This document shows positions 31,483 through 39,059 of a stretch of DNA of 39,089 bases, piece by piece (position 1 is the stretch's first letter; each line of letters starts with the position of its first letter). The DNA comes from Candidatus Velthaea sp. GTDB lineage: Bacteria > Vulcanimicrobiota > Vulcanimicrobiia > Vulcanimicrobiales > Vulcanimicrobiaceae. The notes below the pieces were generated by a model. The model did not search any database. It saw only the letters and a program-made list of their open reading frames with translations, and was not told where the DNA came from. The translations under genes and the position numbers were made by a program. The stretch is taken from the NCBI GenBank assembly GCA_050012475.1, contig JBEKHC010000042.1, forward strand, positions 1-39,089. Direction: 5' to 3'.

Positions 31483-32462
31483 GCCGCCGGCGAATCGGGC
31501 GCCGCTGCGGCCGTGCCGTTGCGCGCCTTGGCGACGCGCAGCGCTTTGCCGCGCACGCGATCGAGCAGCCAACGCCGCTCGAGCGCGAGATGTTCGCGCG
31601 GCCCGATGACGTGCAATCCGCGCTCGTTTTCCAGCCGGGCGAGAATCTCGCCGACCGGAACGAACCAGCCGTTGCGCTCGGCCAAACGCTGCAGTGCGCG
31701 CTCGACGCCGGGTTCGAGCTTGCCGTCGCGAACGAAGCCGCTGGCCACGTGTGTGTACACGATGCACGCTCCGCCCGCCGCCTCTAGTCGCTCGAGTGCC
31801 GCCGGCGTCAGCAGCGCGGTGAAATCTGCCGCACTCGCAGCATCGGTTCCGGAAAACCAAGCGCGGACATACGGGCGGCGCGGATCGGCATACGGCATGT
31901 ACGGGTCGACCGCGGTCGTCACGATATCCCTGAACGTAAAGCCGCGAACGTAACGGATGCGTTCGCGGCACAAGTCGGCCCAGAAATAGGGGCTGGCCGG
32001 CGTCGAGCCGCCGAAGCGAGTCGGTCCGCGCCGAAACGCCCGATAGACGGCGCGGATCAGCGCCGCGTCGAAGCGTTCGCGGCCCCAGTAAATCGATTCG
32101 TTGTTCTGAGCGTGATTGGCATAGGTGGCCGGCCAATTTCCCAACACGTCGCGGAACACGTCGAGCGCGTGGCTGTTGAGCGCCCGCGGCGTCCCACCCG
32201 AGCGTGCTCCGTGCCAGCCGATCTCGAAACCCGCGCCGGCGAGTTCTTCGATCCAGGTGCGATACGCTTCATCCGCGAGCGTTTCCCCGGTAAACCGGTC
32301 GCCGGCGACGCACGGCAGCGACCACACGGTTTTCGTCGTGCGCAAACCGTAGTGGTGCAAGGCATCGTAGAACGGCCGCACGTTCGCCAGGGTCGCACAA
32401 TCGGTGTCGTCGATGATGCTCAACGCGAAACGCTTGCCGGCGGGCCATGCGAGACGAACCAT
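31479..32462 (-). CDS. Polysaccharide deacetylase (CE4/NodB)-like protein
   Basis: [24 protein letters not shown] and terminal WFVPVGEIL resemble NodB-fold motifs; translationally coupled to the GT4 gene. Confidence 0.55.
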
Positions 32463-33670
32463 CAGACCGCGGCCGCGACCTGCGCAACGTACTTGCGCAC
32501 GAGCGTCGAACGTTCGTAGCGCTCCAGCACGAACGCTCGTCCGGCGGCGCCCAGCTGCTGACAGCGTCCGCGATCGGCGGCCAGTTCCGCGATTGCCGCT
32601 GCCAGGGCGGGCGGATCTTCCGGCGTCACGACGATGCCCCCGCCCGATTGCGCGATCAGCCGCGCCGCTTCACCGTGCGCCGAAAGCACCACGGCCGTTC
32701 CCATCGCCAACGCATCGAACATTTTCTTGGGCAGCGCGTCGACGACGTTGGCACGCAGGGGCACCAGGGCAATGTCCGCATCGCGCTGCAGCGCCTTGGC
32801 CTCATCGCTGGTGCGCTGGCCCAAGAATGTCACCCCCTGCAACCCCGCGCGCGCGGCGACCTCTTCCAGCCGAGCGCGTTCGGTGCCGTCGCCGGCGATG
32901 ACGATGCGGATTTGCGGCTTGTCGCGCAAGAGCATTGCGGCCTCGAGGATCGACTCGACTCCGCTGGTCAGTCCGAGCGTTCCGACATACGCTGCGACGA
33001 TCTCGTCGGGCCGGCGGGCATACGGCGACGGCGTCCGCTCGTCGAACACGTCGAATCCGTTGGTGAACAGCACGACTTTCCCGGGCGCGATGCCGCGGGC
33101 CACGATCGAGGCCAACGCCGTCTCGCTGACGGTCGAAACGAGGATAGCCCGGCGATAGAGGGCGTCGCTGAGGGCGTTCACGACGCGGTCCACCGGTGAA
33201 CCCGGTTGCCAGAGATTCAGCTCGATCCCGCGCGTGGTCAAGACGTCGCGGACGTCGACGACGAGCGGCGCGCGCAGCAGCACCCCAGCCGCCAATGCGA
33301 CCAGCGACTGCGTGATCGGCGGAAAGCTGGCCACGATGAGATCGTAGCGCCGGCCGCGGATCGCGTTCCAAGCGATCGACCCGAGCATGCCCGCCGCTAC
33401 CGACGTCCAGTTCAACACGCGGTCGATTCGGCGCAGCCGCGGCGACGCATAGGTCCAGACCCGTTCGACCTGCGCGCGACCGACCTGCTCGACGACGCGC
33501 CATTTGCCGCGATAGCGCTGCGGAAGCGTTCCCGTTGGAAACGACGGCATCGCCGTGAGCACGTGAACGTCGTTCCCGACCGCAGCGAACTGCGCCGCAA
33601 TGGCGGCAGTACGCTCGCTGGCGGCACCCGTCTCGGGAGCGAAGAACTGCGTCAGCAGCAAGATGCGCAT
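32462..33670 (-). CDS. GT4 glycosyltransferase (WbuB-like)
   Basis: MRILLLTQFFAPETGA, VHVLTAMPSFP, YVGTLG, IAGDGTER and PKKMFDALAMG. Confidence 0.9.
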   Translation of the reverse strand: MRILLLTQFFAPETGAASERTAAIAAQFAAVGNDVHVLTAMPSFPTGTLPQRYRGKWRVVEQVGRAQVERVWTYASPRLRRIDRVLNWTSVAAGMLGSIAWNAIRGRRYDLIVASFPPITQSLVALAAGVLLRAPLVVDVRDVLTTRGIELNLWQPGSPVDRVVNALSDALYRRAILVSTVSETALASIVARGIAPGKVVLFTNGFDVFDERTPSPYARRPDEIVAAYVGTLGLTSGVESILEAAMLLRDKPQIRIVIAGDGTERARLEEVAARAGLQGVTFLGQRTSDEAKALQRDADIALVPLRANVVDALPKKMFDALAMGTAVVLSAHGEAARLIAQSGGGIVVTPEDPPALAAAIAELAADRGRCQQLGAAGRAFVLERYERSTLVRKYVAQVAAAV

Positions 33671-33808: not shown

Positions 33809-35374
33809 CTACGCCGGCGCCAACACGTCGAAGTCGCTCATGTGAATGGTTGCCAGACACGCGCTGACGCCGGTGGTGTCCCAAACGTTTGCGGTATTGC
33901 TGTCGGCGGGGTAGATCCCGTTGCCTTGGCTGCCGGTATCCGATTCATATCCGCCGTAGTGCTGCAGGCCGTACACGATGTGCGCCGCTTGCGTGCTGGC
34001 TGCGCACGGCGCGCTGGCGAACGTCGGATGGAGACGAAGGTGCGCACCGAAACACAGCTGGTGTGCGGTTCCCGTACCGGTGTACGCGGTGCCTGCGCTC
34101 GTGCCCGCCGGTGCTACGAAGCAATTGCCGAGCGAGCCGGCTTTGGCATCGAGGTTGATCGCGTGATCGAGATTCGCGCCGGCAATTTCGTCGAGCTTGA
34201 CCAAACCGAAGAACATGCTCAACCCCGACGCCTGCGGTGAACTGGCGTTGGGATAGCCAAGTCCCAGCGGCGATTCGTACGCTTGGCCCAGGGGCCACAT
34301 GATGCCGTTGTACCAGCTCACGGCCGTGCCGGTAAACGCCGTCGAGTACGCCTCGTAGTCGATGCAGCCGTTGGGCTTGGCGGGCGAATCGAGGACGAAC
34401 GAATGCGCGTCGCCGACTCCGTTGTTCTCAATGTAGTAGCCGCTCGACCAGGGCCAGTTTCCGGCCGGGGCGGGATGATAGGACGGATTTCCGGTGACCG
34501 GATACTTGGTCGCCGTGTCACCTTCGTCGAGATTGATCTTCTCTTCGCCGAAATAGGTCTCGGCCGCGAAACTCGAGCTGTCGACGCTCGTTTGCGACGC
34601 GATCATCGCCGCGCTGTACGGATCGACGGCAGCATTCGTCACATCGGCGTTATACGCGTCGCCGGGAGCGCCGATCGTGCATCCGTCGTACATGGCCACA
34701 TTGGTCGAAGGGACCGCGGGCGCAGAAGTCGACGCCGGGGGCGCGGGCGTTGCCGCTACGGCTGCAGGTGCAGGGTTCGACGACACTTCGATCCCCGCGA
34801 GCAAGGCGTTGTCGATGATCGTTTTGAACGCCACCGCGAGCTTGCCGTTCGCGTCGGCCGGTTCCGAAAAGGTTTTGGTATCGGCCACGTATCTGCCGCC
34901 GCTGTCTTTGAAGACGTCGAAGTTCTTCAACACCGTCGTGCCGTTCAGTGCGACATCGAACAGACGCTTGCCGGCCGCAGTCCAGAAGTTTTCGCTGAAG
35001 TGCAGCCGTACCGTATAACTTGCATTCGGCACGAGCCCGGTTACCGTGTACGAGAAATTGCCGTAGCGGGACGTCTGATAGACGGCCTGAGGGGCTGGGT
35101 TGATCACGCGGCTCGTGTCGACGGCGCGCGCGGTCGAACCGGTCCAACCGCCGCCGAACGCTTTATCCGCCGACCATGTTCCCGCCGCTGCGCCGCCGGC
35201 GTCGATCATTACGGCAGCGGCGGCCGCGGCGCTCGTAACGCCCAGCGGACGCGCCATCGACACAGCCGGCAATCGCTGGGCGCTCGGAACCGTCGTTCCC
35301 ATGCCTCCGGCAGCCGAACATCCGCTGACGACGGCCAGCAGAGCCGTGGAAACATAGCGTCTGAGTCGCTTCAT
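33809..35374 (-). CDS. Lipoprotein with malectin-like carbohydrate-binding domain and uncharacterised C-terminal domain
   Basis: ATG 35374 with GGAG RBS; lipobox-like LLAVVSGC; malectin motifs IDAGG, VYQTSRYG.FSY, YTVRLHFSE and GKRLFDV.LNG..VL.NFDV. Confidence 0.85.
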   Translation of the reverse strand: MKRLRRYVSTALLAVVSGCSAAGGMGTTVPSAQRLPAVSMARPLGVTSAAAAAAVMIDAGGAAAGTWSADKAFGGGWTGSTARAVDTSRVINPAPQAVYQTSRYGNFSYTVTGLVPNASYTVRLHFSENFWTAAGKRLFDVALNGTTVLKNFDVFKDSGGRYVADTKTFSEPADANGKLAVAFKTIIDNALLAGIEVSSNPAPAAVAATPAPPASTSAPAVPSTNVAMYDGCTIGAPGDAYNADVTNAAVDPYSAAMIASQTSVDSSSFAAETYFGEEKINLDEGDTATKYPVTGNPSYHPAPAGNWPWSSGYYIENNGVGDAHSFVLDSPAKPNGCIDYEAYSTAFTGTAVSWYNGIMWPLGQAYESPLGLGYPNASSPQASGLSMFFGLVKLDEIAGANLDHAINLDAKAGSLGNCFVAPAGTSAGTAYTGTGTAHQLCFGAHLRLHPTFASAPCAASTQAAHIVYGLQHYGGYESDTGSQGNGIYPADSNTANVWDTTGVSACLATIHMSDFDVLAPA

Positions 35375-35522
35375 GGACACTCCAAAAAGAAGAGCCGCGT
35401 TGCGGACAGCAAAAAAGACGCACACCCAACATCAAGCAGCGCCGGCCGTCACGAGCTTCGTTGCGAAGGAATTAGGACACGTTGAACAGCACGCCGCGAT
35501 GACGGCGCGTTATCCGGCTACA

Positions 35523-35759: not shown

Positions 35760-35800
35760 CGAGAACGCTTGCGGGGCGCAGTGCGCCGCAAGCGTTCTCG
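35760..35800. repeat. 15-bp perfect inverted repeat
   Basis: CGAGAACGCTTGCGG-N11-CCGCAAGCGTTCTCG; no U-tract on either strand. Confidence 0.8.
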
Positions 35801-35902
35801 CGCATCCGCCGCGGCGTCCTCGAATGCTTGCATTGCGTCCTGCAGCGGGCCCCAGACCTTCTGTTTGCGCGCGCACAGGTTGCTGCGGAATCAGCTCGGT
35901 AG

Positions 35903-36097
35903 CGCACGCAGTCGGCTTACAGCGCCCGCGCACGCGCTCGCCTAGCCGTGCGCCCGGCTTACAGCGTCCGCCAACGTACTCGAATTGTCGTGCGCGCCCA
36001 CGCGGTCGGGTCGCAGTACGCGCACGCGGTCGGCTTGCCGTACGAGCGCACGCCGTCCGCTTGCAGTGCGCGCACGCGGTCCGCTTGCAGTGCGCGC
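35903..36097. repeat. Degenerate 24/26-bp tandem repeat array (about 7 copies)
   Basis: Consensus CGCACGCGGTC(C/G)GCTTGCAGTGCG; best copies at 36047-36094; no unique spacers. Confidence 0.75.
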
Positions 36098-36141
36098 GCT
36101 GTGAGATTGAGAAGTGACTGCAAACTGCGCGCTCTAGGCCG

Positions 36142-36468
36142 TCACGCTTCGGGGAGCAGTTCGCGTTCCTCGTCCGTTGTCGGCACGATCTTCCAGCTGA
36201 CGGCGAAGACACCAGGCTCGATACCGATCTTTGTCACGATTTTCTCGAGCTTCGCATCTGCACGCCCCGACACCGTGACATCGGCGATGACCTCCACTCG
36301 GCTTGTCGACTCGATGTCCTCGCTGTACACGGCAATAAGCGACATCGCCGCGCTCCGGACCGTCGAGATCATGAGCGTTCGTAGCCGCTCCTCGACATCC
36401 TGACGACACACTGCACGTACTTCGTAGCTTGAAATCACTTCTATCCCGGGCGATGATCGTCGGTTCAT
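36142..36468 (-). CDS. Stand-alone MgtC/SapB C-terminal ACT-like domain (possibly a truncated mgtC)
   Basis: YEVRAVC...E.RLR.LM...S.DIE...VEV.A.V......AKLEKIV..IGIEPGVFAVSW resembles the MgtC C-terminal domain; no TM domain upstream; lies under an M-box. Confidence 0.75.
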   Translation of the reverse strand: MNRRSSPGIEVISSYEVRAVCRQDVEERLRTLMISTVRSAAMSLIAVYSEDIESTSRVEVIADVTVSGRADAKLEKIVTKIGIEPGVFAVSWKIVPTTDEERELLPEA

Positions 36469-36641
36469 TGCCGGTGCCGCAGGGGCCGCGCTTTGCGGCG
36501 GCGCTGCATCATCGTGCTCACCATGAGCTCAAGCAGATGCAGCGTCGTCGCATCGCCCGCTCGCCAGGCACGTTCCTGTGCCGCGTGCGATTGCGCAAGC
36601 GGCGAGAGGTAGAGTCCGCGAGCCATCAACCCGCTCGTCAT
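36465..36641 (-). CDS. Hypothetical small protein (58 aa); absent from the ORF track
   Basis: MTSGLMARGLYLSPLAQSHAAQERAWRAGDATTLHLLELMVSTMMQRRRKARPLRHRQ*; ATGA overlaps with neighbours at both ends. Confidence 0.5.
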   Translation of the reverse strand: MTSGLMARGLYLSPLAQSHAAQERAWRAGDATTLHLLELMVSTMMQRRRKARPLRHRQ

Positions 36642-36835
36642 CGCGCGTGAAGAATCCAGAACGAAGGGCCCGTATCGGCTGGGTCTAGGCGATTGTGGCG
36701 CGTATGTTCTCGTTCCAGGGCGCGCTGCAAGGAGGCGGCGCCATCGGCTTGCCGGCGCATCCGATCGATGGCGCGGGCGCGTAAAAACGTAATCAAGTTC
36801 GCCGCGTCCGTGCGCGGCGTCGAGAGAAAGTTCAT
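36638..36835 (-). CDS. Hypothetical small basic protein (65 aa)
   Basis: MNFLSTPRTDAANLITFLRARAIDRMRRQADG...FWILHAR*; AGGA 9 nt before the ATG; stop overlaps the next ATG. Confidence 0.5.
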   Translation of the reverse strand: MNFLSTPRTDAANLITFLRARAIDRMRRQADGAASLQRALEREHTRHNRLDPADTGPSFWILHAR

Positions 36836-36846
36836 GTCAGAAAATC

Positions 36847-36936
36847 CTAGTGAGAGTCGCCGCCGATGGCGGCGCAGCAAGCTACCTGCCCGGGTGCGGG
36901 CGGAGGTTGAGACTGACGTGTACTGTTGCCGTCCAT
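36847..36936 (-). CDS. Putative Pro-rich leader or mini-peptide (29 aa)
   Basis: MDGNSTRQSQPPPAPGQVACCAAIGGDSH*; preceded by AAAGGGGGTGAT (close to the extended SD AAAGGAGGTGAT), though the spacing is long. Confidence 0.4.
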   Translation of the reverse strand: MDGNSTRQSQPPPAPGQVACCAAIGGDSH

Positions 36937-36988
36937 CGTGGATCCATCACCCCCTTTGCTGGCATTACTCGCCGACGCGTTCTGACAC

Positions 36989-37020
36989 AAAAAACCGCTC
37001 GGATCGTCGGTCCGGCGGTC
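36989..37020 (-). terminator. Riboswitch expression-platform intrinsic terminator
   Basis: Minus strand GACCGC-CGGA-CCGACGA-TCCG-A-GCGGTTTTTT; preceded by hairpin GAACGACGC-AAACAAG-GCGTCGTTC (37025-37049). Confidence 0.8.
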
Positions 37021-37049
37021 AAGGGAACGACGCCTTGTTTGCGTCGTTC

Positions 37050-37210
37050 GGCCTCTACGTCCGGGGTTTGGCACCATACGCCGTAGAGCCGAGGCTTAGC
37101 CACATTAGATCCCGCCTTGATTCGACGGGGCCTGGTAACCCATTGGGGTCTCTCGACCTTTCCGGGCAGCGGCATATTTGTCGTACGGACGCCTCGCCTA
37201 ACGAGGATTC
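37050..37210 (-). ncRNA. M-box (ykoK leader) Mg2+-sensing riboswitch
   Basis: Minus strand CCTCGTTAGGCGAGGC...GCCGCTGCCCGGAAAGGTCGAGAGACCCCAATGGGT...AAGG...CTAATGTGGCT...GTGCCAAACCCCGGACGTAGAGG follows the M-box conserved blocks in order; flanked by a promoter and terminator and upstream of an MgtC domain. Confidence 0.92.
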
Positions 37211-37218
37211 CAGCTGTC

Positions 37219-37246
37219 ATTGTACCGCCAGGTGGCGTTTCGTCAA
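37219..37246 (-). promoter_or_regulatory. Sigma-70/SigA promoter for the M-box transcript
   Basis: TTGACG-N16-TACAAT, placing the transcription start near 37212, just before the aptamer. Confidence 0.8.
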
Positions 37247-37446: not shown

Positions 37447-37719
37447 ATGTTGTCCCTTGATGAATATCACGCTTTGGTGCACGCCGACGCACGGGACGCG
37501 GCGGAACGTAGCTTGCGGTGCGAATTCGGTCGCCTTAGCAACAGGCGCATTGTAAGTGTCTTGCGACCGGCGGCCGACCAAGTCGACGAACTACGCGGAC
37601 GCTCCGATCGCGATCTTCTCGATGACTGGTTTATGGCGTTTACGCTCTATCGGAAAGAGATGCGGAGCGCTTCACCCTGGGCTCCGTTCGAGCACGCGGC
37701 GTTGAGACTAAGCCGCTGA
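37447..37719 (+). CDS. Hypothetical protein (90 aa)
   Basis: Plausible helical composition and occupies an otherwise empty region; no clear RBS or family motif. Confidence 0.4.
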   Translation: MLSLDEYHALVHADARDAAERSLRCEFGRLSNRRIVSVLRPAADQVDELRGRSDRDLLDDWFMAFTLYRKEMRSASPWAPFEHAALRLSR

Positions 37720-38054: not shown

Positions 38055-39059
38055 TCAGTTTTGAGGCGACAGCAAAACACGGCCCGTCAACTCATGTGAC
38101 TCGAGAAGCTCGTGGGCTCGTGCCGCTTCGGCCAGCGGCTGGATGGTGTAGTTTGGTGGACGGATGAGGCCGGCGCTCAGCCGGTTTGTGAGCGCTGAGA
38201 TGCCGTCGCGAAGCGCATGACCATCGAGTGTCTCGGAAGAGTAGCCGGTGAGCGTGACCGGACGGATAAGTTCCCAGGCGTCGAAATTGACGTTGCCTCC
38301 GGCGACTGCGCCAACGAACGAGAGGACGCCGCCTGGCCGCAGAGCCTTCACGCATGTGCCAAAGAGATGACCGCCCACCGCGTCGATGACCCCGTCGAAG
38401 GTTGCCGCTTCCAGCACCGGCGGAGCGTCCTTCGGAGAGATCACCACGGCACAGGCGCCGAGGGCGCGGACGGCCTCCTCGTGCTCGGGGCGGGAAATCA
38501 CTCCGGTTACGAGTGCTTCTTGAGCTCGGGCAATCGCTACGGCCGCCGAACCAATCCCGCCGGCAGCTCCCGTCACAAGAATTCGCTTGTTCGGCATGGA
38601 CCCGATTCGGCGCAACCCCTCATAGGCGGTAATGCCGACGAGCCCGAATGCCGCAATGTCGTACGGATCGACTCCGGCAGGCAATGTGGTCGCTGCAGCA
38701 GCGGCGACATCTAAATATTCCGCATAGCCTCCGGTGCGCTCCGCGCGAACGCCGCCAAGACCTTGCATCATGGTGATTACGCGATCGCCGCGGCAAAAAT
38801 CCAATACGTCACTGCCGATCGCCACGATCTCGCCGACAACCTCAACTCCTGGAATATATGGAAATGGGTCGGGCGCTCTGATCGGCCAATTTCCTGCCCG
38901 TATTTCCAAATCGGTATGATTAACCGCCGATGCGATGCTGCGAATCCGGACGTCGCCCGGCTTGAGCGGCGGTAGCGATACCTCTGCGCGGGTTAGCACC
39001 CGGGGAGGGCCATATTCGCGCATGAGGATTACGTGCGCACTAGTCGGCATTTCGGCCAC
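38055..39059 (-). CDS. NADPH:quinone oxidoreductase, zeta-crystallin-like MDR family
   Basis: AVNHTDL..R.G, PYIPGVEVVG, GGYAEY, ILVTGAAGGIGS and EAARAHELLES...GRVLL; GTG start with AGAGGG RBS. Confidence 0.9.
   Translation of the reverse strand: MAEMPTSAHVILMREYGPPRVLTRAEVSLPPLKPGDVRIRSIASAVNHTDLEIRAGNWPIRAPDPFPYIPGVEVVGEIVAIGSDVLDFCRGDRVITMMQGLGGVRAERTGGYAEYLDVAAAAATTLPAGVDPYDIAAFGLVGITAYEGLRRIGSMPNKRILVTGAAGGIGSAAVAIARAQEALVTGVISRPEHEEAVRALGACAVVISPKDAPPVLEAATFDGVIDAVGGHLFGTCVKALRPGGVLSFVGAVAGGNVNFDAWELIRPVTLTGYSSETLDGHALRDGISALTNRLSAGLIRPPNYTIQPLAEAARAHELLESHELTGRVLLSPQN

Follow-up and report, generated by a model that had tools for sequence, protein, structure and literature searches.

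A probable mgtC deletion remnant behind an M-box leader with a conserved small-ORF cassette in Vulcanimicrobiota

The stretch of DNA analysed here (39,089 nt, referred to as the window) carries on its minus strand an M-box Mg2+ riboswitch unit that had been predicted to control an operon of small proteins of unknown function with no Mg transporter. Our analysis indicates instead that the locus is an M-box-mgtC operon of the usual type, damaged by a deletion. On balance we favour a reading in which mgtC has lost its membrane domain in this deletion and a conserved small-ORF cassette in front of it likely acts as a ribosome relay, which would add translational control to that of the riboswitch.

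The leader starts with a candidate sigma70-type promoter, TTGACG-16-TACAAT (37246-37219, minus strand, as are all features below unless noted). The promoter scan found 3 sites against 1.1 +/- 1.1 in shuffles, and in a related locus, L012, the two hexamers are unchanged, as is the distance of 16 nt between them, and the spacer letters have changed. The M-box (ykoK) aptamer (37212-37046) matched the Rfam covariance model RF00380 over its full length (1-169/169) with 113.8 bits against a gathering cut-off of 44, and it is the single M-box in the whole genome, which is 94% complete. It is followed by a hairpin (37049-37025) that separates it from a candidate intrinsic terminator with a U tract (37019-36989), both from folding; the predicted fold of the region 37049-36989 had a z of -3.3, with 0 of 200 shuffles equally good, and a consensus terminator scan made no call at 37019-36989. 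The closing pair of the terminator is A-U in the window and G-C in L012, and in the predicted fold of the whole leader the 3′ arm of the terminator pairs with the 5′ strand of the aptamer. The original prediction had placed all of these elements correctly. An M-box allows read-through at low Mg2+. At high Mg2+ it causes transcription termination, as stated in the accessible text of PMC12810186.

Behind the terminator lie four ORFs of 29, 65, 58 and 108 aa. The first, uORF1 (36936-36847; 29 aa, Asp at position 2), was recognised from the sequence and its relatives and is led by a strong, extended Shine-Dalgarno sequence (SD; 36956-36947) that relatives conserve. ORF2 (36835-36638; 65 aa) is basic, without a membrane helix and with a conserved C-terminal FWILHAR; ORF3 (36641-36465) has 58 aa in the window and 61-73 aa in relatives; and the 108-aa ORF (36468-36142) is, by Pfam and homologs, a remnant of MgtC comprising its C-terminal soluble domain. 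The uORF1 stop codon overlaps the ORF2 SD, and ATGA overlaps join ORF2 to ORF3 (36641-36638) and ORF3 to the 108-aa ORF (36468-36465). The four ORFs and both overlaps had been predicted at these positions, and the nesting of the 29- and 65-aa ORFs inside longer frames, of 76 and 80 aa, was confirmed. Contigs from RNA run X15, of a related strain, covered 36893-37195, which is the leader only, and showed neither strand nor level; the run has no cover from ORF2 to the MgtC remnant, which is not evidence of silence.

uORF1 proved to be a leader ORF found across the class. Our sample comprised 151 Vulcanimicrobiota genomes, related and hence non-independent, 115 of which had an M-box above cut-off, and 130 loci (L044-L173), a few of them matching twice, gave 136 usable M-box rows. 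In 60 of these rows, representing all three families, an M-D-(D)-G ORF stands behind a strong SD; the other 76 have no cassette. When the motif was not presumed, the first SD-led ORF past the terminator was short in 69 and long in 43 of 151 rows, 37 rows having no SD and 2 being too short; these rows had been partly chosen by likeness to the window. Asp2 occurred in 67/69 of the short first ORFs behind M-boxes, as compared to 15/506 in a genome control. Among 65 unique copies the SD-to-start spacer was 8-10 nt in 63, the next SD began within -9 to +16 nt of the uORF1 stop in 60, and the length was 27-33 codons in 52. A strict DNA pattern for the uORF1 start matched in 9 of the 151 genomes and missed the window itself; eight of the nine sites were just behind M-boxes, and one (G017) had no M-box. 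Behind uORF1 there is usually another short ORF, which in turn precedes an Nramp-like gene, mgtC or a gene for an unknown exported protein.

The body of uORF1 showed no such conservation at the protein level. Codons 7-30 gave a pN/pS of 1.1 (11 equal-length copies), and at codons 2-6 synonymous sites vary freely (pS 0.54), the low pN there being due to selection of the set. The Ser codons are skewed to AGT, hinting at a constraint at the nucleotide level. A consensus fold of 14 members of the window's subfamily contained an anti-SD against uORF1's own SD (36909-36902) and two hairpins (36901-36888 and 36874-36858), with compensatory change in 5 of 21 pairs; a second, larger subfamily had two weaker hairpins in the same order, with covariation in 1 of 13 pairs. 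Single-sequence folding of the uORF1 region was no better than shuffles (mean z -0.39), and the consensus folds of this region had no conserved helix over the ORF2 SD. The triple proline of uORF1 was considered as an EF-P/proline sensor, an idea weakened by its coincidence with the anti-SD and hairpin 1 and its absence from the larger subfamily. At least three D/E/P in residues 2-7 were present in 36/65 relatives versus 22/415 in the control, a difference inflated by Asp2-based picking, and the window's own uORF1, with a single D/E/P (one acidic) in these residues, is a weak match to ribosome-destabilising sequences. Leaders that act in cis are marked by a conserved start, an unconstrained body, a stop at a fixed position and hairpins that overlap the ORF; uORF1 is likely cis-acting since the positions of its start and stop are conserved and its body is not, and judging from these comparisons we give a cis-regulatory role an even chance.

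ORF2 had 40 homologs of 34-85 aa, and their alignment showed an invariant W-I-L-x-x-R right before the stop and a middle that shortens in frame, such that the ORF shrinks from 65 to 34 aa with only its ends kept. The pairwise pN/pS of ORF2 was 0.56, 0.52 and 0.27 (Fisher p 0.047, 0.032 and 0.003) and that of ORF3 versus L012 was 0.25 (p 0.0003), and a shifted-frame control gave 0.9-2.9. A second ORF2 subfamily has a C-terminal block of 24-25 residues with a pN/pS of 0.17-0.34, the block having been chosen by motif. An ATGA overlap likewise joins ORF2 to the gene behind it in L023, L039, L040, L125 and L154; this gene is a further small ORF, an Nramp gene or one for an exported protein. Database homologs of ORF3 have 65-73 aa, and a profile search of 1.84 billion representatives returned 11 matches, of which 8, at 61-70 aa, share the core of ORF3; the remaining 3 were long repetitive proteins and were set aside. 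Neither ORF2 nor ORF3 has a Pfam family, and against NCBIfam they gave only matches far below cut-off (e.g., a sigma-factor model, 15.9 vs 222 bits). Their maximum 19-residue hydropathy of 0.16 and 0.62, respectively, gives no membrane helix, and their net charge is +4 and +7. The small ORFs are thus real, as had been predicted, uORF1 as a class-wide leader ORF and the other two with homologs under purifying selection; we are fairly confident that they are translated, and ORF2 and ORF3 probably yield short helical peptides of basic character.

These peptides, and perhaps uORF1 as well, could instead be low-Mg2+ small proteins that act in trans like MgtR, MgtU or MgtS by binding a transporter, MgtC or another target, in which case the ATGA overlaps would only provide co-expression and the deletion reading would be unchanged. 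Purifying selection along the full length of the 65-aa form of ORF2 and of ORF3 is in keeping with such a role, as are the ORF3 core, conserved in 10 further relatives, and the motif-chosen C-terminal block of the second ORF2 subfamily. However, proteins of the MgtR/MgtU/MgtS type are single hydrophobic membrane helices, and no such helix was found in ORF2 or ORF3. For MgtR itself the helix is described in the accessible part of PMC6813294. In addition, ORF2 shortens to 34 aa and precedes unrelated genes, and the uORF1 body is unconstrained, so that a role in trans appears possible but doubtful to us.

The cassette in the window leads to what is left of an mgtC gene. The claim that every product of the operon is a small protein without a known function did not hold for the 108-aa ORF, which matched the whole Pfam profile MgtC_SapB_C (PF21770; 1-77/77, E 3e-20) as well as two solved MgtC C-terminal domains (PDB 7qa5 and 2lqj). 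The MgtC membrane domain (PF02308) was not found on this contig by profile or by tblastn. All 43 longer homologs of the 108-aa ORF contain the C-terminal MgtC domain, and 42 of them contain the membrane domain too. The best of these, P0001, is a full-length MgtC of 247 aa with 89% identity to the 108-aa ORF, the start of which lies at an internal Met that MgtC has natively (residue 140 of P0001) and has no SD of its own. The longest contig is 13,375 for each of P0001, the ORF2 homolog P0064 and the ORF3-cluster members, and solely from this shared value we infer that they are co-located.

Comparison with L012 located the damage. There the promoter, aptamer and terminator, 88% identical in DNA to those of the window, are followed by an ORF3 homolog with its own stop and then by an intact mgtC, and the window aligns with L012 on both flanks of a 466-nt gap. 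The 466 nt absent from the window comprise the last part of ORF3, the spacer and the membrane domain of MgtC, and the deletion junction (36472-36470), at a GGC microhomology, supplies the last residue and the stop of ORF3; in the database homologs P0045-P0048, ORF3 continues beyond the junction point. Thirty-seven related loci were read upstream, of which 2 come from the population of the window itself and 7 had to be excluded (L006-L008, wrong strand; L030-L033, partial matches), and the membrane domain was in frame in 28/28 informative loci, some of them duplicates and one, L035, without the first helix of the domain. An M-box was found upstream in 11 of the 33 loci L011-L043. L011 has the same junction state as the window. 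In L014 (99% identical DNA), one extra C at about 36487 fuses ORF3 in frame to the MgtC domain, so the second ATGA is not fixed. The state of the window probably predates that of L014, where an assembly error is possible, because the ancestral frame is preserved in the window as far as the junction. A contig from peat run X3 spans 36161-36755, junction included, without differences; runs X4 and X5 did not span the junction and hence are uninformative. With the junction present in L011, L014 and the X3 contig, an assembly artefact was ruled out as its source. The 58-aa ORF was also considered as a frameshifted MgtC N terminus on account of a five-residue start in common, and this was ruled out by the separate ORF before the intact mgtC in L012.

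The lack of an Mg transporter is therefore true of the locus itself, but its cause is local damage, the state of the locus being very probably that of an M-box-mgtC operon hit by deletion; the MgtC fragment, as far as these alignments tell, is probably a recent, non-functional remnant. The prediction of a stand-alone small-protein operon without an Mg-homeostasis gene did not hold, given the identity of the last ORF and the membrane domain kept in all informative loci, and the two ATGA junctions, which had been taken as an argument for the small ORFs, have different meanings, the first being conserved and the second a deletion scar. We consider it improbable that the locus is a functional transporter-free small-protein operon with the free MgtC C-terminal domain as a deliberately coupled product. 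The deletion is present outside this assembly, and the 108-aa frame is ATGA-coupled, free of stops and frameshifts and has a pN/pS of 0.12 versus L012, but this low value mostly reflects the history before the deletion, and the junction is polymorphic and found only in near-identical sequences. Moreover, with an A behind the native Met codon, any deletion that brings the upstream ORF into the right frame creates ATGA, which we infer would happen by chance in about one deletion of three. It is hardly credible that the whole region is a decayed remnant with the small ORFs as chance frames over conserved RNA structure, as the neutral, hairpin-bearing codons 7-30 of uORF1 and its AGT-biased Ser codons might suggest, given the third-position excess and frame-specific pN/pS in ORF2 and ORF3, the sharp SD spacing, the clustered uORF1 lengths and the fixed stop position. 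The original prediction had named beforehand, as the sign of such a remnant, relatives with an intact mgtC here and no conserved small ORFs; relatives do carry the intact gene, yet the small ORFs are retained in them as well.

The same genome has an intact mgtC on contig C34 (L001, G000:C34:20591-23953) as well as three Nramp-like and two MgtE-N-like matches, and no M-box or uORF1 was found upstream of any of them. These genes may buffer the loss of MgtC. The gene divergent from the mgtC paralog is one that we take to resemble kdpA.

The surroundings of the cassette vary among the loci. Genes downstream of M-box cassettes are mostly Nramp-like, mgtC or an exported protein without a Pfam match. 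In 26 of 108 parsed rows the M-box is followed by a protein that looks exported, has an N-terminal linker rich in Pro and Ser and matches nothing in Pfam, with examples at L046:2035-3134 and in the window's own genome on C25 (~27868-26882) and C108 (~1926-2900); our guess is that it is a candidate outer-membrane Mg2+ uptake protein. uORF1 and ORF2 were also seen with no M-box upstream at L043:3186-3450, between a promoter-like site and an intact mgtC, and at L190:1500-1816. L012 (3300-3360) has undergone a different deletion, in which uORF1 and the bulk of ORF2 were lost and the start of ORF2 was joined to ORF3, with mgtC still intact; this indicates that the cassette is modular. At L021:1135-1869, a protein of 245 aa with weak likeness to PhoU has the ORF2 start fused to it and precedes an Nramp gene and mgtC. 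Paired M-boxes about 660-670 nt apart occur in L128 (G099:C33) and L160 (G113:C3), and in L128 each M-box has its own uORF1 and ORF2. ORF2 precedes a His-rich membrane protein at L177:1615-2500 and in L180, presumably one resembling a nickel/cobalt transporter. In the window, GC-rich degenerate tandem repeats (35776-36099; periods 22, 24 and 42) lie right behind the MgtC remnant, and the repeat region has a different length in L011. The window's neighbouring genes, for a malectin-domain protein (33809-35425), a group 1 glycosyltransferase (32462-33670), a zinc-binding dehydrogenase-type protein (38055-39059) and a 90-aa ORF without a Pfam match (37447-37719, plus strand), are not shared with L012.

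Parts of this arrangement are known from other bacteria. According to the accessible text of PMC12810186, the M-box leaders of M. tuberculosis pe20 and rv1535 carry uORF1 and uORF2 (Rv1805A) in an operon that includes mgtC; as in the window, the M-box precedes two small ORFs, each with its own SD, uORF1 contains an anti-SD, and a uORF homolog is likewise found without an M-box. That platform, however, is described there as translational and Rho-dependent without an intrinsic terminator, whereas the window has an intrinsic terminator before the uORFs, and the Rv1805A peptide is called mycobacteria-specific. The portions available of PMC8092293 and bioRxiv 10.1101/2021.02.02.429294 report that N-terminal acidic residues of MgtL and MgtQ destabilise ribosomes, an effect that is stronger at low Mg2+. 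These leader ORFs, Salmonella mgtQ and E. coli mgtL, resemble uORF1 in being short ORFs before an Mg2+-homeostasis gene and, as far as predicted for uORF1, in N-terminal acidic residues (Asp2 in MgtQ) and overlapping hairpins, but as described in these portions they have 8-17 codons, PhoP control, no M-box and tested destabilisation, whereas uORF1 is a predicted ORF of about 29 codons with a second small ORF behind it. The 108-aa ORF corresponds to the whole C-terminal domain of MgtC/SapB proteins (PF02308 + PF21770), but the hydrophobic N-terminal domain, which the accessible part of PMC4469704 gives as conserved, is deleted in the window. The M-box-NrmT operons of PMC4072509 are similar in that an Nramp-family gene stands behind the M-box in most cassette-bearing relatives; the available part of that paper mentions no intervening small ORFs, and the window locus has no Nramp gene. 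M-box leader uORFs and M-box-Nramp operons were known already. In the literature searched on this phylum with riboswitches or magnesium, and on M-boxes with uORFs, no description of the Vulcanimicrobiota small-ORF cassette was found.

In the ribosome relay that we favour, low Mg2+ would lead to read-through of the M-box, and a ribosome would load at the strong SD and translate uORF1. By analogy to MgtL and MgtQ, uORF1 may act in cis, with its Asp-start, two hairpins and stop position mattering and its product not. Ribosomes would be handed from uORF1 to ORF2 by the placement of the uORF1 stop on the ORF2 SD, and from ORF2 by ATGA to the next start, which in the window lacks an SD, such that downstream translation would depend on finishing each small ORF; in this lineage the relay would end on the soluble MgtC fragment. 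If low Mg2+ aborted uORF1, simple coupling would give less downstream translation, which is the wrong direction. L012, with an intact mgtC and no uORF1, and the M-box rows without the cassette, more than half of the total, also speak against the relay. We tentatively propose a two-peptide Mg2+ checkpoint, in which the Asp-start uORF would sense ribosome stability and the C-terminal aromatic motif of the second peptide (FWILHAR or FSFWRALVS), next to the stop, might be a new ribosome-arrest signal that gates Nramp-like, mgtC and unknown exported genes and could work without a riboswitch too.

The small-ORF cassette stands behind about four in ten M-box rows in a class of peat and soil bacteria. 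Should uORF1 and ORF2 indeed target the ribosome, a single leader would sense Mg2+ in two ways, by its RNA fold and by translation, and would join mechanisms so far known separately from Bacillus and the enterobacteria, for which the many natural variants of the cassette provide a ready test set.
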